Assembly (NCBI GenBank): GCA_951406725.2
Contig: OX597820.1
Span: 124,682,001-124,746,000 of the forward strand
DNA length: 64,000 nucleotides
Source: Octopus vulgaris
Taxonomy: Eukaryota
Reading direction: 5' to 3'
Positions within the stretch are counted from its first letter, which is position 1. Each line of letters starts with the position of its first letter. The position numbers were made by a program, and so were the translations under genes. This document shows, piece by piece, positions 12,452-62,458 of the stretch. A model generated the notes under the pieces. The model did not search any database. It saw only the letters and a program-made list of their open reading frames with translations, and was not told the origin of the DNA.

Positions 12452-12633
12452 ATTACAGTTCTATATTTAAGAGATGAGGAATTATGCACTTTATTTACAT
12501 TATTTTCATTTGACGGATATTTGTCCTCATCTTTGTTGTTAACAGAGCGTTTCGGCTGATATATCCTCCAGCCTTCATCAGGTGTCTTTGGGAAATTTCG
12601 AACCTGGGTTCTCCTTCCTAAGGTATTATTCAA

Positions 12634-12713: not shown

Positions 12714-13200
12714 GTAAGTGAGACAGCAGTACATGCCAACAAAGTGACACTGGGGTAAAATATACGAAGCCCAGTATACCCATCATAACCACCCGTCTGA
12801 TAAATGTACACTAGGCTCATGCATCACCACCATGTGTACCGTTACATGGTAATCTCATATCAAGATAACCAGCACATGACCTTGCAGGTGGGGGCCAAGA
12901 TAAAATTATCTTCCGGCCGAGTAGCCCATCCCGATAAAAAGGTCCCTGTATTAAGGTTGTTTAAGGATGTTGAACGAAACACCCATGTTTCCAGAATGAA
13001 TTATTTAAACCTCAAATAATACCTCTCAATACATGGATATGATGCTCCCCCACTACTTCTGCTTTTGATCAGAGATGTACATGTCGTCAGCCACTAAGTG
13101 ACATGCTCAACTGGTTAAGGTCAAGAAACCGACAAGCAAATCTGTGATATTGAGCAGGATATCTCCTGTAGCCCATCTTTTATACCAAGACAAAACAATG
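12714..13200 (-). mobile_element. ~490-bp non-coding interspersed repeat F, embedded in (TAA)n
   Basis: Colinear with 32655-33152 (AAAAGGTCCCTG, GTCAGCCACTAAG.ACATGCTCAACT, ACAAGCAAATCTGTG.TATTGAGC, TGTAGCCCATCTTTTATA). Flanked by (TTA)n on both sides. Strand is inferred. Confidence 0.8.
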
Positions 13201-18302: not shown

Positions 18303-19112
18303 CGTGTATATAATTATATATGTGAATATGTGTGTATATGTGTGTGTGAGTGTGTGTGAATGTATGTACATTCTAAATGTTGCAACGAATGAAATAAGAA
18401 TATTCAGGTTCTTGAAGGAGAGGCTTACAAGTCTAAGTGAAAAATTTTTCATGTAACTATTTCCAGATGAATATACAATAGGGTTGCTTGAATGTAGAAT
18501 ATTTCACCATGTCTCGTAACTCTTTGCTTCTGAATGCTGTACTAACTTATCTGAGATACGTTTCTTTTTTCAAGTAGCCAACCATTGTGATTTAACCTTA
18601 GTGACATTAAGCTTGGTTTCGTGGTGATGACCTCATCCATATAGGTATTTTTTTCACTGTTCGAACCAATGTTCCGTATGTGAGTACTTACGAAACCACT
18701 CATCAAAATTATGTTTGGTGGGTGAATCGTTGTTTAAAAGAGTTCGCCAGCATATGGATATATATTTAGAGTTTAGTATTGTTTGCACAATAACCAGATT
18801 TAACAGAGAGTGTGTATTTCTTTGTTTAGGAAATTATTGGAAGGGTTTGTGCTTAACTGTAACATATTAGTTGTATTCTTCCTCAAAATATTTTATTTTT
18901 AAATTGTACCTTTATCATTGTCCTTGATGTTTTGACATGTTATTCAACATTCTCTAAGGGATAGAGACATTGTAGGGAACGAATCTAACATGCATTAAAT
19001 TTTCGTCGTATGTTTATTATAGAGAAAGGCTATTTCCATCATACGGTTAATTTATTACGAAAAATAAGCTCGTATATGTATGTAGCCAGTACAGTAGCCA
19101 GTAGCTAGGCTT

Positions 19113-19526
19113 GCAGGAGCGGGTGTGTGATAAATAGCTCGCTTACCAACTACATGGTACCGGGTTCATTCCCTCTGCGTCGCAACTTGGACAAATGTAT
19201 TCTAATATAGGCTCGGGTCAACCAAAGACTTGTGAGTGGATTTGGTAGATGGAAACTGAAAGACGCCCGTCGTATATGTATATATATATATGTGTGTGTG
19301 TGTATGTGTGTGTATGCTTATGTCTGTGTTTGTCCCCTCAACACTGCTTGTCGATTGATGGTGGTGTGTTGACGTCCCCGTAAATTAGCTGTTCGGCAAT
19401 AGAGAGTCCGGTAGAATAAGTACTACGCTTACAAAGAATAAGTCCTGGGGTCGATTTACAGGCACTGCTCCCCCATGGCCGCAGTCAAATGGCTGAAACA
19501 AATAAAATAATAAAAGAGTAAAGAGT
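19113..19526 (+). mobile_element. SINE family E (bipartite, internal microsatellite, LINE-like tail)
   Basis: tRNA-like head, GTGAGTGGATTTGGTAGATGGAAACTGAAAGA, internal (TA)/(TG), then tail CATGGCCGCAGTCAAATGGCTGAAACAAATAAAA. Confidence 0.8.
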
Positions 19527-19544
19527 AATATATATATGTATATA

Positions 19545-19585
<41 letters not shown>

Positions 19586-20372
19586 ATAAATAGATGGATG
19601 GGTGGATGGATAGATAGATAGATAGATAGACACGTAGAAAGATAGATAAACTTAGATGGCTAAATAAATGGTACAGAGCCATTTGTAATGAATCATCAAA
19701 GATGTGTTACATATATTTCTCTGTCTTCTTACCATGTGGATATATATATATATATATATATATATAGATAGATAGATCGATAGATAGATATGCGGAGGAC
19801 ATCACGTATTCAATAAATTGAGAATGGGTTTGCTATTCGTGGGATTTTCCACCAGTGAAATGAAATGAACATATGGTTGACTACACGAATGCATAATGCA
19901 TATATGCGCAGAATTCAATTTCCTAATATTACAGTTAATTATGCTTTATATGCAATGAACTGAATATTTGTTTTCTGAAAGACTCCAAAATTAAAAATTT
20001 GCACTGAGTAATCTCTTATGTTTTCAAAGTAGTTACATCTGTTATATACTTAATACATATTTTGTAGAAGTTATATCATTGTAAATGTTTTGTATATTAA
20101 CAATTCACGCTAAAAGAAGCATTCATGGTTAAGAAAATATAACGATGTGTCGTCCCTCTTAATATACCAAAAAATGTAAGTTGTAATGGAACGCAACATG
20201 GTTGCATGCATAAATATAGTTAAATTTCCATTAAGTACGATTGTGGTAATCTTTTCGGTTTTTGTAAATTAATGGGTTATTATACAATATAGGTAAAATA
20301 TGTATGTATGCATATATCTATCTATATTTCTATCTCTATCTCTCTTTATATATGTGTATATATATGTATATG

Positions 20373-20437
<65 letters not shown>

Positions 20438-21317
20438 ATTTTCTTATGTATAAATACATACGCATGTATGGATGGATGTAAATTGTATATATATATATGT
20501 ATATATACATGTGTGTGTGTGTGCATGTACGTGCGTGCGTGCGTGTGTGTGTGTGTGTGTAAATATTGTAATATTTGGGATGTGATACGACCTACGAATA
20601 TTATTTTACCGCATTTGATTATCAAAACGCTAATTTGTCACCTACTGTGTTGCTGGTCTAAGGAGATTTCAATGTATCCTAATGCTAGTCCAATGTCACG
20701 CTCTTATCTATCAACTGAGTAACGGCAATGGAAGAAACACGAATAATAAATGGTGAGAGAGTGAAGAAGAGTGAGATGGAAGAGAACGGAAGTAGGTGTA
20801 GAGAGAGAGAAAATGTGTGTGTATAAGAGTGAATGAGAGAAAAGGAAGAAAACATGATCAGTTAGTATAGTTGGAGATGGAGAGCAATGCATGATAGAAA
20901 ATATGATGTAGTGGACTATATGTAAGGTAGATGGCACAATATGCTGAAATAGCAAAGTTTTGGAAATTAATTCCACTTTACTAAATTAATTTTCTTATTT
21001 TCTCCGTCTCTGAAGATGACTCTTTCTCCGATTATATGATGCATTTTGGAATTCTATTTTCGGATACGAAAAATTTCGATACGAGAATGGAATGAATGCT
21101 CAGATCTTCTGGAGATATATATATATATATCTACATATGTATCTGTGTGTGCGCGCGCGTAAGTGCGTGCGCGTGTGTTTCTTGTGTGTTTGCGTGTGTG
21201 ATTTGTTGTTTGTATAGATATTTATGTCTATCTGTCTGTATGTATTTACATATTTATGTGAGCGTTGGTGTGTTCCCTTATGCTTGAAGGTGTGAGTATA
21301 TATATATATATATATAT

Positions 21318-23343
21318 ATGGAGCAAGTAATACTCCAACCAACCAGGGCAGGTAACACACTGGATCTCTGCTTCACAAATAATATGGATTTCATCCATAA
21401 TGTGAAAGTGACACCGACACTACTCTCGAATCACAACATGGTAGGGCTGACCATGAACGGGCCAAAGGAATGCATGGACATGCAGCCTACAAGAAACTCT
21501 CAGAATTTTTCCAGCTTGAACTTCAATAAGGCAAACTGGAAACAAATTGAGAAAGAGATCCTCAAACAAAACTGGCCTGAATGTCTCTCCTCGCCAGACA
21601 TCGACATGAAACTTCAACAATTCATGTCTGTAATGCAAGCCATATGCTACAAATGTGTCCGAGAGAGAAAGGCCACTGTACACAAGAACAAAATCCCCAG
21701 AGAGAGGAAAATTCTAATGAGACGGCGTACAAAAATCTCAAATCGCCTAAACAAACAAATTGAAAGCAGTGAAAAATCCCGTCTGAAAATGAAACTGTTG
21801 GAAATTGAAAAATGTCTGCAACTCTTCCATGAAAAGGAAAGAGCAGACAAAGAAGCCTGGGCTATAGACAATATAAAATCTAACCCCAGAGCTTTCTACA
21901 GGTATGCCAAAGAAACAGATACAGTGCACTGTAGGATAGGGCTACTCCTTGAAAGGGATGGCACACTCACGGGAAATCCAATGAGGGTAAGTGAAATACT
22001 AAATGAGCAATTCAAGAGTGTTTTCACCCCACCCCTTGGGCATTTCCAAATCAGCAATCCAACTGACTTCTTCACCACTGCAGATATGGGGTCAGAGGCG
22101 GCGATGATTGATTACATCAATATAAAGGAAGACGATGTAATAAATAATGAGATGAAAACAAACTCAGCTACTGGCCCCGATGGATTCCCGGCAATCCTTC
22201 TAAAAGTATGTATGTGAGTCCTAGCAAGACCACTGCAGTCTCTCTCTCAGAGCTTCCTTGCAACTGGCAAACTTCCAAGAAAACTGAAGGAAGGTAAAAT
22301 ATGCCCTATTCATAAAGGAGGTATCAGAGCGGAGGCCAAGTGTTCCGCAGGGCACTGTTTTGGGACCACTACTGTTCATAATGGCCCTCTCAGACATGCC
22401 CTCAGCCACGCAGTGAGCCACGATCACAAGTTATGCAGATGATACAAAAGTTTCACAGGTAATACAGAACCCTGAAGACACTAAGCACCTGCAATGTGAG
22501 CTGGACAAAATATATAAGTGGGCTGAAAAGAATAGGATGCAGTTCAATGCTGAAAAGTTTCAAGCTTTATGCTATCAGCATGCAAAACTGAATGCAATAC
22601 CCAATGAATACACTGGACCCGGAGGGATTGCAATCCCAGAGGCACAATCAGTGCGTGACCTGGGTATTCACATGAGTGATTGCGCAACCTTTCATGTACA
22701 TGTTGCTAAACTGGCAATGAAATGTAGACGGCTGGCCGGATGGATTCTTAGTACCTTTAGAACAAGAGAACAAGAAACCATGATTGTCCTCTGGAATACA
22801 CTTGTCCTAAGCCACTTTGACTATTGCTCTCAGCTATGGTCACCATCCAGTGTCAAGTTGATCACAGAACTTGAGGCGATCCAACGAAGCTCCACGAAGA
22901 AGATAGCCTCTGTGCAGCATATAAACTACTGGGAAAGACTCAAGAGATTAAATCTCTATTCCTTGGAGCGTAGGCGAGAGAGATATGCCATAATATATAT
23001 CTGGAAGATCCTGGAAGGACTTGTCCCAAACTTTGGCATCGAGAGTCACACAAATGCCAGAACCGGGCGCCACTGCGTGGTACCAAGGACTCCAAATTTG
23101 CCATCAAGATGTAGGACAAGATACTGTGATAGCCTGGGCTTCAGAGGCCCACAGCTCTTCAATATCCTCCCGAAGAACCTGAGGGACCTGCATGGTGTAG
23201 ATTCGGATGTCTTTAAAGTAGGACTGGATCTCTTCCTGTCAGGTGTCCCGGATGAACCAACTTCACAGCAGGAGGTGCAGATAAGGGCAGCTGCATCGAA
23301 CTCCCTCATGCACCAAATGGCAGTTGCTAAAAAGCATTCGTGA
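21318..23343 (+). pseudogene. disrupted LINE ORF2 (endonuclease/reverse transcriptase)
   Basis: ORFs 21318-22217 and 22537-23343 plus intervening RT motifs. Stops, frameshifts and a deletion of the N-terminal RT subdomains near 22340. Confidence 0.85.
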
Positions 23344-23430
23344 GGTAAAATCATGTAGCAAACCAAATGGCGGTGCCCCAGCATGGCCACAGCTCATGAG
23401 CTAAAACTGGAAAAATCAAAATCAAAAGCA
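21318..23430 (+). mobile_element. 5'-truncated, internally deleted CR1/L2-group (APE-RT) LINE
   Basis: Endonuclease end PTRAGNTLDLCFTN..SNH, linker GPDGFP, PIHKGG joined directly to VPQGTVLGPLLF, YADDTK near 22432, C-terminal ERLKRLNLYSLERRRERY..GPQLFNILP. Short 3' UTR with (AAAATC) tail. Inserted in (TA)n. Confidence 0.9.
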
Positions 23431-23432
23431 AA

Positions 23433-23516
<84 letters not shown>

Positions 23517-23668
23517 CGTGCGCGCGTGTGTGTGCGTGCGCGCATGTGTGTGTGTGAAACGTTGAGTTGAATTTCATTATTTTTCCTTGGTGGAGGATCC
23601 AATGTTAGATTTCTATACACATTGTATATTTGCATTGAATTAATAAACAATAACTGGTGTAAGTCAAT

Positions 23669-23705
<37 letters not shown>

Positions 23706-23886
23706 CTACCACTGTGAGCTACGTGGTTTCAAAATGTATATCGATAATATAGGCGTAAGCTATATAATGTAGGCCTAATGATCAGGCGGGAGAGGCGCAT
23801 ATATGAATTGATTTGACGCAGGTAATGTTATGTGATTAACTATTTCGTAACTGTGTTGTTTTTTACTAGTTTCAACTTCATGCTGC

Positions 23887-24010
<124 letters not shown>

Positions 24011-24087
24011 TCACATATATATATATAAACCAAGAGATAAGATGGAGATAAGTTTAGTAAATATTTATTAATACATTGAGAAAACCA

Positions 24088-24197
24088 GACCTACAATTGT
24101 TTCAATTCCCCATTTGCAGCATAAAATCAACCAACTATAATTTAATATAACTAATTCAATTTAGTTAATTACTACAAGTGAGAATATCGTCAGGGAA
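24088..24197 (-). ncRNA. type I hammerhead ribozyme motif with long helix II
   Basis: CC-CUGACGA-U-AUUCUCACUUGUAGUA...UGCUGCAAAUGGGGAAU-U-GAAA-CAAUUG-UA-GG. Helix III is the palindrome ACAAUUGU, triplet GUA, helix I only 2 bp in this copy. Confidence 0.65.
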
Positions 24198-24413
24198 GGA
24201 CTACAAAGGACGTGAAAACATCAAAGTTCAAACTATATACGTTAATTACAATACATACAGTTATGAAAATAGTTATAGTTATAAATTAGTATAAATAACT
24301 AAAATGTTTTTTATAGTATTAATAATATATATGTATGTGCCTATTTTGTTAGGTTTTCAATCAGTCTAATCATAGATTGTTTAACCCTCTCAGGTTTATA
24401 TCCCACCTTTACT

Positions 24414-24558
<145 letters not shown>

Positions 24559-24569
24559 CATATATGAAT

Positions 24570-24735
24570 TGTGTCCAATAAATTTGGCATCGAAACATCA
24601 AACCATGATGCTTGCTCAGTCGCAGTGTGAGATGTACCCATATTCACTACAGTTTCCATCTCATCGTTATCCACCTTAATCTGAGGACTACCACATGGCT
24701 GATTTACAAAAGTAAAGTCACCAAACTGTGACTTC
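24570..24735 (-). mobile_element. mariner transposase N-terminal HTH relic
   Basis: Translation WFEKSQFGDFTFVNQPCGSPQIKVDNDEMETVVNMGTSHTATEQASWFDVSMPNLLD fits the mariner WF..F..G...L....GRP linker and second HTH. Confidence 0.7.
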
Positions 24736-24754
24736 TCAAACCATAAATATGAAC

Positions 24755-24821
<67 letters not shown>

Positions 24822-25142
24822 TATATATCACTTATTCCCCAATGTTACCAATATACGCAGCGGGAACAAATACTATTGTTACCTTCGAGGTAGCTTTTTA
24901 AATAAAACAAATATTTTTTTTCTGTATTAAAACTCTGCAACTTTCTACAAACGTATTGTTTTTGTATGCACTTACCTAACTGTTTATAAATATACGTACG
25001 GGTTGGTGGTTATATTCTCACATCGATACGTGTATAAAGTGTGTAACGTGATTTTGTGTCTGTATATGTGCCCTTACATATATGTGTATGTGCAAGTGCG
25101 TGTGGGTGTCCGTGCTTACGTATGTATGAAATGAATGTATAA

Positions 25143-25184
<42 letters not shown>

Positions 25185-27080
25185 CTTTTGCATTTAATTG
25201 GCATCTCTTGCCCTCAGTTTACTTACTTCATTCATATGTGCATGCTTTGTTACCATAAAACTTATGTCTCGATATAGTCATAAAATTGAAACAAAGCTAT
25301 ATTCAATAAACTTTTTCAAAAGCATACGCAACAAACGCAATACGAAGTGATAAATTTACAGCTGTCAACAATGTTCTTTTCGATATTTATATTTCTATGT
25401 TTTCAGTCGAAACAGGTCTTTTGAAATATACATTTCTGTAGATATAATGAGACAATTATTTACTATCTAAAACATAGACTTTATACAGCTGTTATTTTAC
25501 TTCATTTTACAATACATATGTCGAATCAATTGTTGCAGCTAATAAGAGTTTATAACATTCTTCCTCATGTTACACACATAAATGGATACTGTGACAGGTT
25601 TAGGAGCCACTGAATTGGAAAACTTTATGGTTTTCCTTTTAATTTCTTCGGGTTCAGTCTATCGTAAAAGGCAGTGTTTCAGATAACTACATCAAGAAAA
25701 GAAATAATTACTTCATCAGCAATTACACTCATTAAGTGATCATAGGTTTTCAAATTTGACGTAAATTATGGTTGTGTAACAGAGCCGAAAGTAGTTTTTA
25801 CTCTATGTGTTAGGAATGTAGTTAAAATATCTAATTGCTATGCATGGTAATTATAGGCGTGTATGTTGTTGGTATAGATTTTCTGGAAATTTTTCTAAAT
25901 GATGTTTGAGAAATATAAAGGATCCATTTCATGTATGTCATTCTTACGCACGCATACTAACATTCTCCGGTGGAAATGACGAGTAACATTTAGAATGGCA
26001 CTTACTCGTCTAATACGCCACAATCTATATTTCAAATAATAAATAATAATGTGGATCCATATTACGATGTTCAAGATATGCATAGGAAGAAACTAGTAAG
26101 ATGGAGAGAAAATATTCATGGGTTTCCATGTGCTACTACTGAGATTAAAAGGTTAAAAAGTAAAATAAGTTGCTTCTAATTGAAAACGTAGGGTTTATTT
26201 TAAAACTGTTTAAATTTCAATTAAACTAATGCAATTAACCAAAATTCGACATTCAGTGAGAATGGAAACGGACCTCTAGTATGCTATTGATCGTTCCAGT
26301 AAAATTCTAACTCAAATTTCAGTTTGGAGTTACTGAGAAAAATACGCCTTCAATTTCTTTCGGAATCTGATGAATATTCCAAAGGTAATTTTGATTTTCT
26401 ATTCCCTATTGTAGCTAAGATGCGTATTAGCTCCGACCGAGATTAACTATTTTCAGCTACAAAGAATCTAAACTTACAGTACAAATAACTTATATATTAT
26501 TTGAAAGCAGACGAGTGTAACTCGGTGTAGATTTGACAGTTAATTCTAGGAAATCGAATTGCTTCATTCCACGCAGAACATCGGATATTCTGGCCTTCTG
26601 CCAACGTATTTTTTCTTCTAGATACTACATTGAAAATACAACGTAATACATGATTGTCTATAGACAGGCGACCATATCCCAGATCCCTTGTAATGGTTTT
26701 GTCAGAGTATATTTCATTTGAACTGACACTGTTAATATTCAGCAGCACGTGGCTGTTGGTGAATCTTTATACCACCTAATCACAACCCATTCAAGATTAA
26801 TTTAGCTAATTCCTCATCTTACGAGCCTTTGTGCATCTATTGAAAGAAATACTGAATCACTTATACGTTGATCAATTCCTAGTGCTACGAATATTTTCTT
26901 TGCTAGCATACATGTATCTTTCCTTAAATGATAAATAGCGATACCAATATTTGTTAAGCGTTTCCTTCAAATTGGATGTCACACATATCTAGGAAAACGT
27001 AACTTTGCAGATACAATGTGAACGTTATTACCTCACATTTCATCTTTTTAAAACTCCTGTTTGCATATAAACTCCCACGC

Positions 27081-27300
27081 GGTGGAAGCGTGTGGCGTAG
27101 TGGTTAGGGTGTTGAACTCATGATCGTAAGGTTGTGGTTTCGATTCCTGGACCGGGCGATGCGTTGTGTTCTTGAGCAAAACACTTCATTTCACGTTGCT
27201 CCAGTCCACTCTGCTGACAAAAGTGAGTAATCCTGCGACGGACCGGCGTCCCATCCAGGTGGGGAATTTCTACGCCACTGAAACCGGAAACCGGAACAAA
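27081..27300 (+). mobile_element. tRNA-derived SINE, head type B, with a different tail
   Basis: TGGCGTAGTGGTTAGGG...GTTTCGATTCC, GCGTTGTGTTCTTGAGCAAAACACTT, then CCTGCGACGGACCGGCGTCCCATCCAGG...GAAACCGG. Confidence 0.8.
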
Positions 27301-27982
27301 CTCCCCCGCATATATTGATTTGTTGAAAAAATGCTTAATATTAATGCAAAAATTAAAAAAAAAAGTTATTGCTGGATTGAGCACTTTTGTGTGTTTCTAT
27401 GACAGTTAAAGTAATTAAAACTTGTTATTAATGCTTTTTTGTCAATGTATGGAAGTCAGACACTCTCAGAATATTAAGAAACTTACGACGAAGTGAATGA
27501 ATACTAAAGATCAAGATTATCTGAAGTATTTTATTGAAATTTCTGCAAAGTTTTCATACTGCACTGGCAAAATGGTTCAGGAAAACGAAACGAGGTGGTG
27601 AAGACGTAACTGAAAACAAAAACAACTGGAATGTAACAGAAAATTAAAAAAAATAACTGGACAGAGAATTTCAAATGGAATTTCAGAAAATAAATAATTA
27701 GAAAATATGCAGAATAATAATTAACAGCGACTACACAAATTTCACTGGAACTGGTTACTGAAAATAATTCTGAGATTATCAAAAAAATACTAGAAAATAC
27801 TGATGAGGTTGGCATAGCAATAATGATACGGATGACGACGACGACGATGATCATGATGATGATGATGATGATGATCATGTGAGGGAGGCGGGGCTTAACA
27901 TATAGACGATAACTTATTAGTTTTCATAACTTTCTGAATTCTGTTATGTATTTCATGGTGATGATAATAACGATGATGATGA

Positions 27983-28190
27983 TAATCCTTTCTACTAAAG
28001 GCACAGAGCGTGAAATTTTTGGAGAGTGGACATGCTGATTGCATCGACCCAAGTGGGTAACTGGTACTTACTTTATCGACCCTGACAGAATGAAAGCTAA
28101 AGTCGACCACGGCGGATTTTGAACTCAGAACGTAGCGACGGGCGAAATACCGCTAAGCATTTCGGCCAGCGTGCTAAAGATTCTGCCAGC
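27983..28190 (-). mobile_element. SINE family D with alternative 3' tail
   Basis: Head and core match 5326 and 61260, but the 3' end is ...AAAATTTCACGCTCTGTGCCTTTAGTAGAAAGGATTA followed by (TCA)n. Confidence 0.8.
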
Positions 28191-28269
28191 ACTATGATGA
28201 TGTTTAAAGATGATGGGAATCTTGTGAATATTATAAATGATGATGATCATCTTAACAATGATAATTAGT

Positions 28270-29285
28270 GATATTATGTGATGAAAACTCACAGTCTATT
28301 GTTCTGCGTATGACGGAAAGTGTCAGCCGTCCACAGACGGCAGACCAAGATGACTCTTGTTTACTGGTTGTGCTTCAAGTACCCTGCGAAGAATTCTTGC
28401 AGTTCCAAGCAATACCGATATTTGGAGATGTTCTATCGCGACACTTGCACCAATCTATTTTAGCCATGTTGGTAGTTGAGTACTGATACTTCCAACTGCA
28501 CCAATGACTATTGGCATCACTTCTACTCTCCTCATTCATTACTAACTTCGTATTCCCCACTTCAAATCTTCGTACTTGTTTATTTCGTCTTCTTACACAT
28601 CGATCCTCTTATCACCGGGGAATGCTATGTCCATTATCACGCATTCCCTTTCTCTTTATTCACCGGCTTCCAATGTCTACTTAGATGATCGCACTGGGTC
28701 ATTGCATCCCAAGGATTTTGAAATTCTCATTTCCGTGACTCCTCCTAGGGTTTTCTCATACCACGTTTTTGCCCTTTGTAGGCCGTGATTTCCACAGAGC
28801 TCCCAGTGGCTCATTTTTGCCACATTGTCATGGCGTCTTTTGAATTCGCGCTTTGCCAATTTTGGGCTTTTGTTAACGATATGTCATATCGTTTCATCCC
28901 TCTCACCACACATTCTGCATTTGTTGCTGTCAGTAGTGTTGCCAATTCTGCACTTAACATAGTTGTTCCTTAACGCTTGTACTTGAGCTGTGCATATGTG
29001 TGCTTCTGTTTCTATCTTCAGGTCACTCCTTTCCATCCACAGCCACCGGTCCTCTGTATCTGTTTTCACATTCACTTCTCTTGCAAATTGACCGTACGTT
29101 TTTCCCCTTCCATGCTTTTTATTCTGTGGTCATTTCTTCTTAAAATATTTCACTTTCTTTCAATACAAAATTTTCAGTTTTGATGACATTGGTCTTCTTC
29201 GTATGTTTCAACAATAGCTCCACGGCATTTTTTATTTACCACCCTAAGCTGTTTTACTCTGCTTCGATGTCGCTCAATATCCAAT
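28270..29285 (-). mobile_element. R4/Dong-type RLE LINE 3' portion (piece A)
   Basis: LKIETEAHICTAQVQAL..CRMCGERDETI.H...KRRHDNVAK..HWELCG (CCHC knuckle and RHD), followed by a degenerate RLE domain and a (CAT)n-like tail. Confidence 0.85.
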
Positions 29286-29289
29286 ATCG

Positions 29290-29922
29290 TAGTGTTGTTG
29301 ATTGAAGATATTGTATCTACCGGCGTTTTGTACTGCCTGACAAGTCACAACAAGGACCTCAGACAGACAGTACTTTACGAATTATGCCTGCAGTTCAAAG
29401 TAATACCGATGTTTTGCAATACAACTAAATTGTAGGGCATTTCTAAAGTTTCCAGATGATTTTCTTCTGGATGGGTGATATTGAACCCAATTCTCCGATG
29501 ACAATAGGGACACACTTTATGTGTGATTCTCGTAACTGTCACATCTTAGCCATCTTAATTCTTAGGTCTCCATATTTCTTTTCTCTTTCTTTCATGATGA
29601 TATGTTGATCGCCTGATACTGCCACGTCGGTTATTAAGCACTTTCTTGTTTGTCCCTCTTAAAGCTTATTGTATCCGGCCTTTGGTTCTCTAACACCTTG
29701 TCTGTCTGGAAGAGAATTTTTGATTTCCCCTTTTTTGCAATTAACTTCTCAGGTGTATGTTGGTACGAAGTACCCGTGTCCTCATATCCATACTTCCGGC
29801 ATAGTAGCCAGTGAATATTTTGGGCTACCTTGTCATGTTTGCGCTAGTTCTATTTCTGCGCAAGATTTCAAAATCACTAATAATGTGAGTCACGATTTCG
29901 TCTCACTTCCCACACATTCTAC
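29290..29922 (-). mobile_element. R4/Dong-type RLE LINE 3' portion (piece B)
   Basis: RMCGK.DEIVTHIIS..HDKVAQNIHWLLCRKYG..KCLITDVAVSGD..KEKEKKYGDL..VPIVIGELGSI..IIRKVLSV*. Confidence 0.8.
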
Positions 29923-32520
29923 TATGAGTGGAATTTTTCTTTTTAGACTTCTCATTCGAGTTACTTCTATTTCCACATCTTTGTATTTTGAAAGTTTCTC
30001 CTTTTCTTTTCGAGAAACATTGTCATCTGATGGCATTGATACATTGATTAGAAAGCATTTTTTGTTCTGGTGATCACTGACAACTATATCCGGCCTGTTA
30101 GCCTTAATTTCTCAAATTTTGTGAATTGATACATCCCATAGTTTGGTTGCCTTCTTATTTTCTCTCAACGTTTCTGGCATGTGCCTATACCGTTTTTTTT
30201 CTGTTTCATAACCCCCAGTGTATATAGGTCTTGACTCCGTCTGTCTGTGAATATATTCCTTCTTAGCCAAGATAGGGCACCCAGAGACAATATGATATAT
30301 ATTGCTTCTTCTCCATGTCAACACATTCGGAAGTTACTTGTATTTATTTTCATTACATGTAATTCTGGTGAGGAGGCTTTGGTTTTTTTACTGCAATAAA
30401 AAATCCTTCGGTCTCTGCTTTGAATCATGAGAATCTCAGCCATTGTTGACATCTTGCTTTGTCTATTTCTTTTGCGTTTAGTTTAACCCAGTATTTGCCA
30501 ATGAAGGCGATTTTCTTGCAATCGTTTTATCATAATCCATTGCTGTAAAAGTTTTCGTTGGATTTCAGTTGTTGTACAGCTTTCGTTGTCTCTTGCTTTT
30601 CTTCATAGATTTTTGGTTCTATGACTCCTTTTGGCATTTGTCAGCTTCATTAAATACTGAAAACAGTTTTTCTTTTGTTCGAGGTTTTTGGCTATATGTA
30701 TTAATTTTCTTTAATAGTAGTCCTAATCTATATTTGTAATAGTTTTCTAGCTGTATAAGACCCCTTATACCTTTCATACTTTGTATATATATATATAACA
30801 TTTCTATGTGAGATTTTGAACGGTGCATCCTAAATCCTGTCCTTATTTTTGTTGTTTTCTAATTTGTTTTGATTAGTTCATTTAGAATTCATCTAAGGAT
30901 ATTGTATCTGTAACTTACAACTGGGACTGCTAGAGTATGGCTACTTATTATCTTGTTTTTCGCAATGAGCTATGCTTTCAGTATTAATCCAACTCGGCTA
31001 AAGTATTCCTTTCTTATCTTCTTCTTCATTTGTGTGTGTTGTATTTAGTTCATTGATTCCTAAGTATTTGGATGTCTGGCTTTGATTTTATTCTCTTATT
31101 TCATTTGCTTTATCCGGTGTGATGTTGCTACTCTTAACTAGTTTGCTTTGGCACGTTTTTCTAAGAGACGTTTCATGTTCATTGTTTGGTAAATCCACGT
31201 ACTGTGTATAGTAATGCTTCCAGCTGTTTATCAATTGTAGCGTGCTGTTTGACCTCATTTATATATGAAAGGTGGCTGATTGTTTTGCCGCAACAGTTAT
31301 ATCCACATCCGGTTCTGTTTAGTAGGTCAGATAAAAGGAATGGAGAAAGTGTGTCGTCCTGGAATATTTGTTTTCTAATGGGAATGGCATTGGTTTTTAT
31401 GAGACCCTCTTTTGTCTGGAGCTGTAACACTAACAGCTATTTATTAATTGAATATTTTATACATTTTATAATTATTGGTGCTACCTTGTTCTTGGCTAGT
31501 GTTTTCTAGAATCCATGTGTAGAGTAAACTGTCAAAAGCCTTTTGGTAATCGATCCAGGCCATACTTAGTCTCCCCTTCTTTCTGCGGCTGTCTTCATTT
31601 ATGGCTTTACTGTAGCTGATCTTTAGAGCCGTATGAGACATTGCAACATCTCTTGTCTATGGATCTGCTATTATTTCATTAAATTTCTCAATTTTCTATG
31701 TGTTCCTGTTCGCTATTTTAATCAGAAGTTGGGGATTTTGTCTACCCGGGTACCTTCCAGTTGCATATATTTTACAATGACTGGTTGGCCTCTTCATTTG
31801 TTATAGGCGTTGAAGTATGTTCAGGTGTTGTGTTTATTGTTTTCACAGACTTTTTTCTGGGGTTGTTCCTTCACCGACCATATTTCATTCCAAAATTCTT
31901 CCTCTCCTTCTGCTCTTGGTGTTGAATTAATCTCTATTTTATTTTCGCCATGTTCTTGGTACAAACTTTTGGGGTTGGAGTTGAACTGTTTGTTTTGTTC
32001 AAGGTTGCTGTGCCGTTTCTCATATCGGTGGGTTCTCTGTACTTTGGTTAGACTATCTTGTTGTGGCTGTTCTTTTACCTCAGGTGTACCTTGTTCTGTA
32101 AGTTTGTATTTACGCTGTATTGTTCTTTACTTCTTGCTGCTCAGTAGTGTTGATTGTCTATTAATTTCATTAAGGATAGATAGATCCTTTCTCTTGTATT
32201 CTACTTTTTCTAGACAGTATTTATCCACAAGATTTGCTTGGGCGTTGATGCTTCTGTTTGGATGGTTTTTAGGGGATGGCCAGCTTCTTTTCTTTGCCAC
32301 AAAGGCTGCTGCATATATTATATAATTTAGTCTCGTCATATTGATATTTTTTTCTGTTGCTACAAGTTCTGTGACGAACAGTTTCATGCTATTTATTATT
32401 GATGTTTTATTATCAATTTTAATTTTTGGGAGGTACAATCGGTGGTCCATATTGAGATTTGTGGGTTTCAATTTTTTGATTATACTCATTTTTAGAGTAT
32501 CATAAACATCAGTTTCACCT
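29921..32520 (-). mobile_element. degenerate near-full-length R4/Dong-type LINE lacking its 3' end (piece C)
   Basis: N-terminal region, RT motifs LSMAWIDYQKAFDS and IFQDDTLSP, CCHC region HIVSGCPILAKKEYIHR, and RLE ANRPDIVV..CFLINVSMPSD..KEKEKLSKYKD..IPLIV. Many stops and frameshifts. Confidence 0.85.
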
Positions 32521-32654
32521 TTAATGTTTCCAGGTTTTTAATTTTTAGGCCGTATGTTTATAGTAGCAAAGTCTTGTATCATTATTACTGTTACTACTGT
32601 GTGTATGTGTGTGTGTATGTGTGTGTGTTTTTGTGAGAGAGAGAGAGAGAACAA

Positions 32655-33152
32655 TTCATGCCTAATATACCTATCATGACTACTCGCCTGATAAGAGTAC
32701 ACCAGGCATATCTATCATAACCATGTGTGTGATATGGTGAACAGATATCAAGGTAAACAGCGCACGATCTTGCAGATGTGGCTCAGTTAGAATTTTCTGC
32801 AGGTCGAGTAGCTCAACCCGTTCAAAAGGTCCCTGAATACGGTTTGTTTAAGGATGATGACCGAAACGTCCATGTTTGCAGAGGTAAATTATTCAAATTC
32901 CAAAGAATCCCTCTCAGAATATTGCTATGACGCTTCCCACTACGTCTGCTCGTTATCAGAGATGCACATATTGTCAGCCACTAAGGAACATGCTCAACTA
33001 GTTAAGGCCAAACAACTGACAAGCAAATCTGTGGTATTGAGCTGAATATTTACTGTAGCCCATCTTTTATAAAAGAACGTACATGATATCACTTCCAATC
33101 AGTTAAGATCAAAAGCCATGAGAGCCACAGACTGGTACACTATCTGCGCATG
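32655..33152 (-). mobile_element. second copy of repeat F, directly 5' of the Dong-type LINE
   Basis: Colinear with 12714-13200; preceded on minus by TAATAATAACAATAATAAC. Confidence 0.8.
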
Positions 33153-41854: not shown

Positions 41855-42859
41855 GAGACATAAAATGGCTTAATAATTCCAGGCAGATATCTATAAATCA
41901 GTCAGTGTTAAGCGAATTTGGTTAACCATATCAGACAATCAAATACCACTAAATACAAGTAGAATTAACATCGAAGTTAATTCTTCATGTATGACAAATA
42001 AATCCAAATATCGCCTGAAATATTTTCAAGAAATTTGAAGTGTGTATATATATATATATATCTACATACATACATAAATACATCAGTTTTATTTTCCTAA
42101 GGAGATTGCTATAAAGTTTAGAAGAGTTCAACCCTTAATCCATATTTGGCACCCCTACAGGTGCTGTCATTTCCACATAAGGTGAGATGCCAAGTAATGG
42201 TAGTCTAATCAAAGTTCCGCTGTAACCACCCATTTTGATAATCCATTTGTTACAAAGACATCGCCAAACGCGGTCGAACTACAACAAAAAGAAAATATTC
42301 ACACCTGACTAAGTAGGTGTACATGACATCAAGCTGGCGTGGTATCAAAAGTATGATAAATAATGCTGAGAGAATGACCCTATACAGATATTCTGCTCTT
42401 GTTGCACATGATCGCCCCAGTCTGAACATTCATAATGCTTACCTCCGGGAAGTCTCTTTCACTGTGATCATTGTGCAGCGAGACGGTAGGACACTTTTCA
42501 CATTAATTTGCTGCTTTCTTGAATCGGTGATAAGGACACTTTAAAACTATTTTCAGTGTCAATCACTAATTCCAAGTCTCGGCAGAGCTTCATGTCTCAC
42601 AGCAGCTATCGAAGTCAGAACAGGACGGGATAACTTCTCTCGCAGAGACGAACAAAGACATAGAGCACCTGAAACGTGGAAAGGAATTATGAGCGGACGG
42701 AATCCCATGTTAACGGCGTAGCGCTGCACTCTAAACTCAAGGTAGCAAGGTAAGATACCAAGCATTTCTAAGATGCTAGCCTCATCATCCTGTTTTAGAG
42801 TGAGGAAAAGTCTGACTGATCCAACTGCAGAGGGATTTCGAAGACAAAATCCTTGCCAG

Positions 42860-43295
42860 GGCGCAAGATGAAAATATTCCAGAATGCCATCACAGCTACA
42901 GAGCAAGGGGGATTACAATCGTCCAGATTTTATTCTGAGACAGCTCCAAGACAAGTGGGAAGGCAAAGCAAATGCCTCTGAGATCACCATTGTCAAACCT
43001 ATTGACATTGTCAACCTTGTCAACCAATTATGTAAGCAGAAAAGGCGTATGGTAAATACTACACTGTTTGGTATGTATCCGCCCATCAATAATCATCAAG
43101 CAGGCTTTGATCAGATAGAAGCAAGAACTCACCAAGCCATTTACCTTTGGAAACTGTGAGATTGAAGATAATATCTTGCAGCCAACTCTTCTCACCACCA
43201 CTCTTCGGCATGATACTCAAGCAGGCCACTGAAGACCCCGATGATGAAGATGCCTTCTGTATCCAGTACCGTATATGTGGTAGCGTCTTGAACTT
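42860..43295 (+). mobile_element. RTE-clade LINE reverse transcriptase relic
   Basis: FILRQLQDK...K..D.VN and P.LF..ILKQATED.DDED.FCIQYRICGSVLNL resemble RTE/BovB RT segments. Confidence 0.6.
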
Positions 43296-44002
43296 GTGTG
43301 TGCATATATATGCACACACAAACATACACACATGTGCCGTACACACACATCTATATTGCATCAAATGTCTGCAATATTACAATCGTGTGTTTCTAATCTT
43401 AATGTTTTGTACAAATTCAGTCTAAACACTGCACTAGTATTTCTTGAGCATTTCTTTTTCTCATTTATTTTATATTTCATTTTCACAAACTTTATATTAA
43501 TATCTCTTTGATGTAGAACGTCAAGGCAAAACAAAAAAAAGGAAAAATCAATACCTTGCACAGAAGGAAATCCTTCTTTAAACTTCCAATAATTTTTTAC
43601 GTCAAAAATCGACTTTTGGATTACTTACAGTCCACTACAATCGAAGTCACAACTGAAATAATAGATCTATTAAAAGTTTCATTCGTTAATCGATATTCGA
43701 CAGAATATCTAGAAAGAACATTCTCGAATTATTATTTATTTAGCAACTGTCTGCTTTTATTGCACAAAATTAAACAAAAATCAAAATATCAGAAAGAAAA
43801 TGTTTTTATAGGTAGGTCAAAATGTGATTATTTTTGTTTCATTTTTCACTTTCAAATTCATTTTCTGTTGTTGTTTTCTTGCATTCTTTCCATATAATAA
43901 TTTATTTTATGGAAAAGAAAGACGAAATTTATGTAATAACATGTTTAGTTGTTTGAACATAACGTTATAGAATATCGTGAGGTATATTTTCCATTTAAAT
44001 AT

Positions 44003-44190
44003 GGCTAAGCCCTAAGGGTGGATGCTACTGTAGCTTTTAGCCTCAGGAGGACACCTCCTCTAGCTGGCTATTGACGCACTTTCTCTGCCCTATCAGTATT
44101 TGCAAAGGGAAGCCATCCTTCCCGTCTTCAACCTATGATACACACGGACTCGAGTTTCTGGGTATTGACCCGTCATCAGCGTGTGACAAT
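44003..44190 (-). mobile_element. short GC-richer element beginning with an intact hammerhead
   Basis: Compositionally distinct ~190-bp block with the HHR at its 5' end on minus. Boundaries are approximate. Confidence 0.5.
44141..44185 (-). ncRNA. minimal type I hammerhead ribozyme with intact core
   Basis: CACACG-CUGAUGA-C-GGGU(CAAU)ACCC-A-GAAA-CUCGAG-UC-CGUGUG. Perfect 6-bp helix I, 4-bp helix II, palindromic helix III ACUCGAGU and GUC triplet. Predicted cut between 44147 and 44146. Confidence 0.88.
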
Positions 44191-44839
44191 CAAAGCTGTC
44201 GACGAAAAGTAGACCTTCCTCTGCAAATATATATCCTTTTTGCAGTGACGTAAAGACACTGATATCGAAAAAGTGTAAACGAGCAATAAGAAATTTCTGA
44301 GCGGGTTTATCCAATATGTCTCCGTAATAAATTTCCTCCGTAGATACAGTACTCTCTTAGATTCTGGGTCTGATACTCCATACAACATTTATCGATACTT
44401 ACTGTTCTCTTCTGCAATGTTTTTCATTAGATTCAGTAAGCTGAACTTTAGTCGTGCAATATCCGCCTTCTAGGCTTTACATGATTATATCGACATGTGC
44501 TAGAGTGGTATTTATTTCATGAAATGCTACATCTCATACCGCTAGGGAGCACGAAACACACAATCAAATTCATTATAGATTTCGGTTGCAATGACTAGCA
44601 AATCAAGACTCATTTACGACCATCGAAATCGCATGTTGATCATGTCCAGGACAGAAGATCGATTCGGATCTAGAACACAGAAGCACCAACCAGCAGGTTT
44701 GTGTTACAGCCGTATGAGCCAGTTAGTCACTATCAATCATTGTGAATAACGAGTTAACATCAGTCTCTCGACATGCACAGCATTTTTAATTAATTTTCAT
44801 TTAAAGAGAAAAGATCCAACCTCCATTTATATGCATATC

Positions 44840-45290
44840 TTTTGTTTTGTCTTTTAGCGTTTGCTCGTTTCAATCATTAGAGTGCAGCCGTGCTGGTGGC
44901 ACCACTTTGAAGAATTTCAATCGAACCAATCGACCCTGTACATTGTTTTAAAACCCGTGTGCTTATTCTATCGGTGCTTTTGCTGAACTAAGTTACGGGG
45001 ACGTAAACAGACCAACACCTCTTGCCATGCTGTCGTTCGGAACAAACACAGACATAAAGTTGCAAACATACACATTCATGCACACACACACACACGCATT
45101 CACACACACACACACATGTACACACACACACACGCATATGACAGTCCTTTTTCAGTTTTCGTCTGTCTAACAAAAAATCCACTTATAACGCTTTGGTCGA
45201 CCTGAGTCTATAGTAGAAAACATCCACTCAAGTTGCCACGCAATGGGAATGAACTGATAACCATGTGGTTAGGAACTAAACTTCTTGCCT
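44840..45290 (-). mobile_element. SINE family E, diverged
   Basis: Reverse complement matches 19113-19526, including the internal (CA)n. Confidence 0.75.
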
Positions 45291-48293: not shown

Positions 48294-48507
48294 AAATATG
48301 GGGGTTTAGTTCACAGGTAATCTAAACGATTAGGTACGCTAGGTAAGTGCTGTAACGGATTAATGGGGCTCCAAGGTTATAGCCGAGACGGTAGTTATGG
48401 AGCCATTGCAGTTTTCCGATATAGCAGATATATAATTGTTAAACTGGACGTTAAATATTAATGCAAGGCAAGTCATATACAATATTATGACGGGAAGACA
48501 TTCAAAA

Positions 48508-48561
48508 TCTTACAGCTGTTTCTGGGATATCTTCGAATTTGGGATATTCCGTTATTAGACA
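48508..48561 (-). ncRNA. degenerate hammerhead motif, left arm
   Basis: UGU-CUAAUAA-C-GGAAUAUC...GAUAUCCC-A-GAAA-CAGCUG-UA-AGA. 5' core mutated, helix III intact. Confidence 0.55.
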
Positions 48562-48737
48562 CAAATTAGGGACAGAAAATACCGAAAATGAGAATGGTAT
48601 ATATCAATAAGGTGACAACTTTTACGCCCCTTGTTTTCTTTTCCTTCCATCTCGTTATTCATTTAGTCCCTACCACTATGTTGTCAACTTATTGATATAT
48701 ACCATTCACATTTTCAATATTTTATCGTTCCAATTTC

Positions 48738-48791
48738 TCTCTGATGAAGGGGTATTCCTTACACGAGGACATTCCAGAAAGAGGTGTAAGA
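48738..48791 (+). ncRNA. degenerate hammerhead motif, right arm
   Basis: UCU-CUGAUGA-A-GGGGUAUUCCU...AGGACAUUCC-A-GAAA-GAGGUG-UA-AGA. Core intact, helix III mutated. Confidence 0.6.
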
Positions 48792-48891
48792 TTTTTAATC
48801 TCTTCCTGTAATAATATTGTATATGACTTGAAATGTTTGCTTTGCCTTAATGTCTGACGCCCTGCTTAACACACACACACACACACAGACA

Positions 48892-61218: not shown

Positions 61219-61587
<369 letters not shown>

Positions 61588-61588
61588 C

Positions 61589-61668
61589 ATTTCTTTACTA
61601 CCCACAAGGGGCTAAACATAGAGGGGACAAAGAAGGAGAGACAAGAGACAAAGGGATTAAGTCGATTA
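61589..61668 (-). mobile_element. 3' tail of SINE family D, inverted relative to 61260
   Basis: Reverse complement of the family D tail. Confidence 0.85.
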
Positions 61669-62458
61669 TATATATCCGTTTATATATGATATGTATCTCT
61701 GGTGTTGAGAGATGTAATTTTAAGGAAAGTCCGTGACTAGTATATAAACACTTTCCCTTGCTCAATCAAACATATCAGTAGCTTCTCTACTGGTCGAGAT
61801 AGTATTAAGCCGTCAGCTAGAAAATAAATTTCCAAACCCTCTTTAGTTTGTTTGATCTTGGTTCACTTCGCCATGCTGTAAACTGTCCGACATTAATTAC
61901 ATTTTAGATGCAAGTTGTCTCTGAACTAATTGTTTTCATAAACAATGATGGTGACATTTGCCTAAAATGTGGAAACAAACACAAAGAATTGAAAAACAAT
62001 CTAAAGTTAGGAAGCAATTCAATGGAGAAAATAAACGTAATGAAAATATCTGAAAACAGGTTAAAGAGGCATACCTTTAAATTACGCTCCAGCAATTAAT
62101 GTGAGTTTCAATGTGATGAGAAGGATTGTGATAAAGGTTGATTTCAGTGACTTTATAGCCATGCTGACGCGTTGTTATGGAGTTATGCTCATCCTTTAAT
62201 AACTTTGGTATGAACATTTCGTCAGAACAATAACATAATGACATAAATGAAAGGTGCTTTTCAATGTTTCCTGAAGTATCGTGTGCGGATGTATGTATCT
62301 GTGAGATCGCATGTATGTGTATGCCTGAACGTGCGAGCACAGGGTATATAGGATATACAGGGACAAAAATGTTTTGGAATAAATTTTTTAATGTTGCGGC
62401 GTTGATAATTTTAAATATATAAGCATATATTTCAAAATAATAATAATAATAATAATAA

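Follow-up and report, generated by a model that had tools for sequence, protein, structure and literature searches.

Does the hammerhead motif on the minus strand at 44185-44141 act by itself on any transcript that crosses it, or does it belong to a mobile family that works elsewhere? The window examined is a stretch of 64,000 nucleotides of DNA (64 kb), AT-rich and full of microsatellites. The initial annotation placed here an intact hammerhead heading a short orphan element. The motif is real. We consider it probable that it sits inside a single copy, 337 bases long, of a very abundant repeat, likely a non-LTR retrozyme of a probable octopod whose ~355-nt units would stand in tandem elsewhere; the lone copy is predicted to cut poorly.

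Sequence and build of the hammerhead

Read from the sequence, the motif is a type I hammerhead of 45 nt (44185-44141; coordinates in this section refer to the minus strand). The 5' strand of helix I, CACACG (44185-44180), pairs perfectly over 6 bp with the 3' strand, CGUGUG (44146-44141). Between the two strands lie, in order, the core CUGAUGA (44179-44173), a C (44172), helix II with its loop (GGGU-CAAU-ACCC, 44171-44160), an A (44159), the core GAAA (44158-44155), helix III (C-UCGA-G, 44154-44149) and UC (44148-44147). By the hammerhead consensus, cleavage is predicted after GUC, between 44147 and 44146. The annotated layout, the perfect 6-bp helix I and the GUC site were thus borne out letter by letter. 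The core elements CUGANGA, GAAA and NUH are all present, and the three helices follow one another in the type I arrangement.

We searched with a structure descriptor that required the core together with at least the helices in part: helix II with three Watson-Crick pairs and helix I with five pairs. It matched the 64-kb window once, at this hammerhead, and any match at all was found in 2/200 windows shuffled in 1-kb blocks. Rfam hammerhead models gave no match at gathering score in the whole window, and none of the 9 Rfam matches at E up to 10 over 43500-44700 was a hammerhead.

Two features of the build are weak. The C at 44172 occupies the 10.1-11.1 position, where a G-C pair is usual, and faces A 44159 in a C-A mismatch. 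The helix II region (44159-44172) therefore begins with this basal mismatch and continues with four pairs and a 4-nt loop, or alternatively with three G-C pairs and a 6-nt loop. The 10.1-11.1 pair is the most conserved in the hammerhead after 15.1-16.1 (PMC3088659), and natural mismatch variants are described there, with U-U in PMC3088659 and in axolotl Amex2 in PMC7229834. Helix III consists of one C-G pair closed by the 4-nt loop UCGA. Around it lies an 8-nt perfect palindrome (44148-44155), which could form an 8-bp helix between two copies (duplex -10.7 kcal/mol). The site is a real type I hammerhead motif of canonical metazoan build with a weak helix III. The term "intact" is true of its core letters only, given the one-pair helix III and the C-A mismatch.

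Extent, abundance and organization of the repeat

We determined extent and depth from contigs of four public runs (X1, X2, X9 and X10), aligned at 80% likeness. These four were taken from the 20 of 24 listed runs that contain part of 43990-44800. Depth exceeds the flanks only between bins 43944-43986 and 44288-44330, and loose ends start at 43974. The hammerhead thus lies in a near-full lone monomer of a high-copy non-coding repeat at about 43974-44310 on the minus strand (337 nt, 43.6% GC), with approximate ends, 44310 more so than 43974. In X1, contig depths sum to 43-60 across most of the two flanks; within the repeat the sums are 0.8-1.3 million at 43987-44158, 267,509 over 44159-44201, 20,759-52,305 over 44202-44287 and 4,559 over 44288-44330. 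X10 has the same profile. The ratio of peak to flank is ~19,000-30,000 in X1 and X10, as summed contig depth and not copy number, and the family probably numbers thousands to tens of thousands of copies.

These data redraw the element that was annotated as 188 nt headed by the ribozyme. The ribozyme sits mid-element, with 125 nt of the repeat, as judged by contig depth, upstream of it on the minus strand. The "orphan" is single in the window, where blastn found no second copy, yet it is a member of a very high-copy family. The 3' part of the unit (43974-44075, minus strand) folds into short hairpins and is the deepest-covered part of the family; a search of it for a second ribozyme (twister, HDV-like or pistol) gave no Rfam match at E up to 10. 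A short open frame after an ATG near 43994 was dismissed as too short to be meaningful. The 138 nt downstream of the hammerhead are 50% GC, compared with 33.6% for the window, and no stop-to-stop ORF of at least 100 aa overlaps them, in agreement with the GC-richer non-coding stretch of ~140 nt first noted there. The annotation had left open whether the downstream RNA was a retrozyme monomer or a retroelement 5' UTR. Size, abundance and the non-coding unit make the first the best reading; the second is unsupported, as no ORF follows and the flanks are single-copy.

How are the units of this family arranged? In 24 X1 and 2 X2 contigs the family sequence runs on beyond 43974. Eighteen letters past that point, the continuing sequence matches 44299-44310, the opposite end of the repeat, and the 44310 end had been placed independently, by depth. 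The shared junction pattern occurs once in the window, at 44299-44310, with 0.09 occurrences expected, for 10 specified letters fitted after the fact. We therefore take 44299-44310 (minus strand), which resembles the far end of the sequence following 43974 in other copies, as the putative 5' end of the unit. This suggests that the unit, head-to-tail or circular, measures about 355 nt; 337 of these are present in the window, and about 18 would be absent from the flagged copy. In addition, one X1 joint (depth 239) links 43983 straight to 44179, head-to-tail. None of the contigs listed covers two units, none of the listed joints connects 43974 to 44310, and the 64-kb window holds no tandem units. 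When the 43974 and 44310 ends were compared for a target-site duplication, 9/11 letters agreed, a level equaled by 6.7% of random window pairs.

The size, GC content below 50%, lack of an ORF and helix build fit published non-LTR retrozymes (PMC7229834, PMC4209133), the reading that we favor. The unit falls within the ~150-450 nt and <50% GC of non-coding retrozyme units (337 nt, 43.6% GC, no 100-aa ORF). The ribozyme is of the canonical type I build as defined in PMC4209133, with 6 bp in helix I, 4 bp in helix II, a short helix III and a palindromic loop. Many genomic copies are indicated by summed contig depth in X1 and X10, although depth is not a copy count. Metazoan non-LTR retrozymes are reported at 220-245 nt in coral, 350-390 nt in mussel and 331 and 353 nt in axolotl (PMC7229834). 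The present unit (337 nt, ~355 inferred) resembles those described there in size, in being non-coding and less than 50% GC, in its canonical type I hammerhead, in its highly paired predicted fold and in its very high copy number. It differs in that the flagged copy is a lone monomer and in that its host is probably a cephalopod. Retrozyme families include dispersed monomers, according to bioRxiv 10.64898/2026.07.22.740005.

Retrozymes appear to derive from pseudo-LTRs (bioRxiv 10.64898/2026.07.22.740005), and for that reason the main rival is that the copy is no small independent tandem unit but comes from a Penelope-like element, autonomous or not, as its solo pseudo-LTR or as its 3' end truncated on the 5' side. 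We regard this as unlikely while giving it real weight. Depth drops toward the 5' side of the repeat, by ~20- to 60-fold from the peak over 44202-44287, and 5' truncation of a longer element would also produce such a fall. At 44192, 63 X1 and 62 X10 contigs leave the alignment and go on in related sequence; the reduced upstream depth is at least partly divergence, and truncation may contribute. Opposite-strand joints make up 9 of the 15 joints listed, as inverted truncated Penelope-like copies would give (bioRxiv 10.1101/2021.04.23.441226), but a single contig stands behind each. The 3' end of the repeat, in turn, leads back into its own 5' end.

Type I hammerheads occur in pseudo-LTRs (PMC4209133), and 24/57 Xenopus retrozyme families match known repeats, nearly all of them Penelope-like (bioRxiv 10.64898/2026.07.22.740005). 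The flagged ribozyme shares with the Penelope minimal hammerheads of PMC4209133 the type I topology, a palindromic loop 3, predicted dimer dependence and a mostly single, dispersed occurrence of copies. It departs from that minimal build, with its long helix II, G10.1-C11.1 and no helix III: helix II is 4 bp instead of 7-8, helix I is 6 bp instead of 4-5, and the conserved G10.1-C11.1 is replaced by the C-A mismatch (PMC4209133). In some cases those hammerheads flank an RT/GIY-YIG frame (PMC4209133), and no such frame is present here. By eye, the upstream DNA shows a few GIY-YIG-like residues. Our initial reading was of a Penelope pseudo-LTR behind a decayed GIY-YIG gene; it became less likely, the upstream DNA (44331-44800) being single-copy at 80% likeness and lacking any relevant protein match. 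Three upstream minus-strand frames gave Pfam families in 0/3 cases, a word search of two of these frames gave no match, and a full phmmer search of one returned only 2 repetitive, unrelated-looking proteins. ORF, Pfam, word and phmmer searches thus found no adjacent RT/GIY-YIG frame, although a very decayed remnant could escape them.

The copy is lone here, abundance is very high and coverage is deepest in the 3' half, as expected of a SINE-like element that arose from a retrozyme or pseudo-LTR and now disperses in the form of linear monomers, never passing through a tandem or a circle. We think this improbable: the kept dimer palindrome, the kept rod described below and the loose end resembling a junction suggest that multimers or circles do occur, and we found no tRNA gene in the window and no poly(A) tail after the unit.

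Predicted folding and cutting behavior

In ViennaRNA, the single core is predicted to form an inactive hairpin (44172-44168 with 44155-44151) with a probability of 0.93, and helix II with a probability of 0.06. The monomer core would thus be inactive by pairing of the 5' strand of helix II with helix III. Two cores cofold as a double hammerhead with an 8-bp helix III (-49.1 versus 2 x -21.3 kcal/mol, a gain of 6.5), and a natural variant with a CCGG loop gains 6.1 kcal/mol. The cofold measure is not specific, as helix II forms in both copies for 148/256 loops; the natural loop UCGA ranks 32/256 for dimer gain. The full-length tandem pair remained in the inactive fold in ViennaRNA and formed no double hammerhead, in a model that leaves out tertiary contacts and co-transcriptional folding.

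Because of the one-pair helix III, the C-A at 10.1-11.1 and the predicted inactive monomer hairpin, efficient cutting likely needs two copies, and the flagged lone copy likely cuts weakly. Axolotl hammerheads of like build are reported to cut 6% and 22% in one hour as monomers and much better as dimers (PMC7229834). In Xenopus, 1/9 tested dimers cut at all (bioRxiv 10.64898/2026.07.22.740005). The flagged ribozyme is especially close by description to two axolotl hammerheads in PMC7229834: it shares with HHR_Amex1 a single-pair helix III closed by a tetraloop that is palindromic, and with HHR_Amex2 a mismatched basal position in helix II, U-U there and C-A here. Both were found to cut far better as dimers (PMC7229834). 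In most invertebrate type I hammerheads, helix III is stable and the monomer cuts (review PMC7761336). The flagged ribozyme is closer to the salamander type than to this monomer-competent one. The host, an invertebrate, sets it apart from the salamander satellite-2 type, to which the likeness is one of description and not of sequence comparison.

These considerations bear on the initial annotation's functional claims, that this is the best candidate for a still-active ribozyme and that a host transcript crossing it would be cut. For the flagged copy both are doubtful, because it is alone in the window, its helix III has one pair and its single core is predicted to be inactive. A host transcript may indeed cross the locus. 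Two of the runs, X2 and X9, which we guess to be RNA, cover both single-copy flanks at a depth of 12-15 (43600-44880), and their repeat-to-flank ratio is ~220-380, against ~19,000-30,000 in X1 and X10, unlike whole-genome runs; the region 43600-44880 may therefore lie in an intron or in some other long host transcript. The core letters are intact, and salamander monomers can cut when helped by a looped extension of helix I (PMC6155905), such as the flagged copy has. That the copy is an active monomeric ribozyme cutting a minus-strand host transcript is nonetheless very unlikely in our judgment. To the weak pairing and the predicted inactive hairpin are added the drift of this copy from its family in the rod, the guessed RNA nature of the two runs, whose transcript could be of either strand. 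The flagged copy is most likely a passive monomer.

If the retrozyme reading is right, tandem copies elsewhere would be transcribed by read-through. Paired ribozymes, joined as a double hammerhead through the 8-nt palindrome, would cut the transcript into ~355-nt units, which a host RtcB-type ligase would circularize. By analogy with known retrozymes, a Penelope-like reverse transcriptase could then re-insert the units, giving dispersed, permuted monomers like the flagged copy.

The predicted rod, family variation and significance

The minus strand is predicted to fold into a ~200-nt rod with the hammerhead at its tip (44077-44275), extending helix I beyond a small internal loop. The stretch 44230-44100, chosen by eye after the motif was seen, folds as a single long hairpin (z -5.66, 0/200 shuffles). 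A blind sliding scan gave z -2.3 and -2.6 for two minus-strand windows over the rod and up to -3.9 for AT-rich plus-strand flank windows, so the z-score alone is not decisive. Folded as a circle, the whole unit is of no more than moderate stability, at z -2.4 (1/60 shuffles) with 60% of bases paired, versus -2.0 for the plus strand.

Within the rod span, 7/14 listed family variants stabilize the fold by at least 0.5 kcal/mol, compared with 75/504 possible changes (p 0.002) or, among transitions, 33/168 (p 0.01). Tested singly, 3/14 variants destabilize the rod. For one of these, 44203, the partner is also altered in loose ends, where CGUC/GACG becomes CAUC/GAUG, as judged by eye on separate consensus lines. 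In X10, the arms of two loose-end lines pair over 10 bases with both sides differing from the window, again by eye and on separate lines, with a consensus agreement of 0.56-0.74.

None of the 20 variant rows inside the repeat falls within 44134-44192 (40 of 94 rows listed), for which we estimate a chance of about 0.02 if rows were evenly spread. Among the 24 loose ends listed, of 468, there are clusters at 44134/44136 and at 44189/44192, and family copies diverge immediately outside the ribozyme. The 3' side of helix I is unaltered in X1 and X10 loose ends. In loose-end consensus lines drawn from 34 contigs in X1 and 31 in X10, loop III is CCGG and not UCGA, so that both loop ends change and the palindrome is kept; in an X9 loose-end line (8 contigs) loop III is mixed and non-palindromic. 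Family variation thus tends to back the rod and to keep the loop III palindrome; within the rod, the flagged copy departs from its family by drift.

The long rod tipped by a hammerhead is also what would be seen if an infectious circular RNA, viroid-like or delta-like, had integrated here. We consider this extremely improbable. The opposite strand carries no ribozyme by Rfam or the descriptor, there is no ORF and so no delta antigen frame, and the genomic abundance is very high, as in retrozymes. Two hammerhead patterns had no exact match in viral contigs, and pattern scans for the hammerhead in viral contigs, prokaryote genomes and metagenomes gave 0 matches. A second metagenome scan returned 1 locus, which has no blastn similarity to the window and was set aside as a chance match.

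RNA editing is heavy in cephalopods. In the RNA sense, from family to flagged copy, A-to-G differences account for 5/12 changes in the rod and 0/8 outside it (Fisher p 0.05), with the direction of change not fixed. The five sites, 44113, 44133, 44196, 44203 and 44221, all lie in the rod and may record A-to-I editing. When 16 palindromic loops are compared in how well they shut helix II, the two natural ones come 1st and 4th, and 7/16 have this effect. One could read these two weak signals together: octopods would harbor an abundant RNA circle, viroid-like and able to lock the ribozyme within it, with a rod edited by host ADAR and genomic copies that are fossils of the edited RNA. We hold this only as a speculative reading, with a low probability. 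Its self-locking part is that both natural loop III variants are predicted to pair with helix II in the monomer and to open only in the dimer. Here the ribozyme is predicted to be blocked by self-pairing, which PMC7229834 reports only for some mussel circles.

Retrozymes are a kind already known, and a cephalopod member would be new. In the full-text literature we found no description of a cephalopod retrozyme, judging mostly by title and abstract start and with subscription papers largely outside the scope. Repeat databases lay outside the search, and the family may be listed there already as a repeat without a class. The invertebrates named in the text of bioRxiv 10.64898/2026.07.22.740005 are three insects and a coral only, and in the giant squid genome 235 Rfam hammerhead-1 matches were counted, apparently without further analysis (PMC6962438). 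If confirmed, the retrozyme reading would extend these elements to cephalopods and show in an invertebrate the weak hammerhead, dependent on dimers, that is described for salamanders. The built-in alternative hairpin predicted here would offer a testable answer to how the ribozyme stays quiet in the circle, a question left open in PMC7229834. Likewise, a long double-stranded rod in a heavily editing animal would be a natural substrate for asking if retrozyme diversity arises at the RNA level.

Other repeats are present in the window. Another hammerhead core, with the minimal build known from Penelope elements, lies at 12545-12581 on the minus strand; it has an unpaired base after A9, G10.1-C11.1 and nearly no helix III, and shares no blastn similarity with the flagged hammerhead. 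A ~415-bp repeat occurs in two copies that are 78% alike, one (12769-13184) just upstream of this core and the other (32660-33071) upstream of a decayed LINE at about 28700-32600 on the minus strand. By eye, that LINE seems to hold three successive restriction-enzyme-like endonuclease modules, and we take its look to be R4/Dong-like. A LINE remnant on the plus strand (21288-23343) has two long open frames, the second of which (22417-23340) matches reverse-transcriptase-family proteins; among the best 120 of 1157 matches, the best named one is an Argonauta hians protein with 60% identity, and a crayfish protein lower in the list has 43%, which makes an octopod host probable. At 42000-43300 on the plus strand there is, by eye, a decayed RTE-like LINE fragment, whose three plus frames gave 0 Pfam families. 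Finally, two fold-back stretches (48437-48871 and 61405-61671) are 69% and 88% alike to their own reverse complements and are possibly MITE-like elements or inverted SINE pairs.
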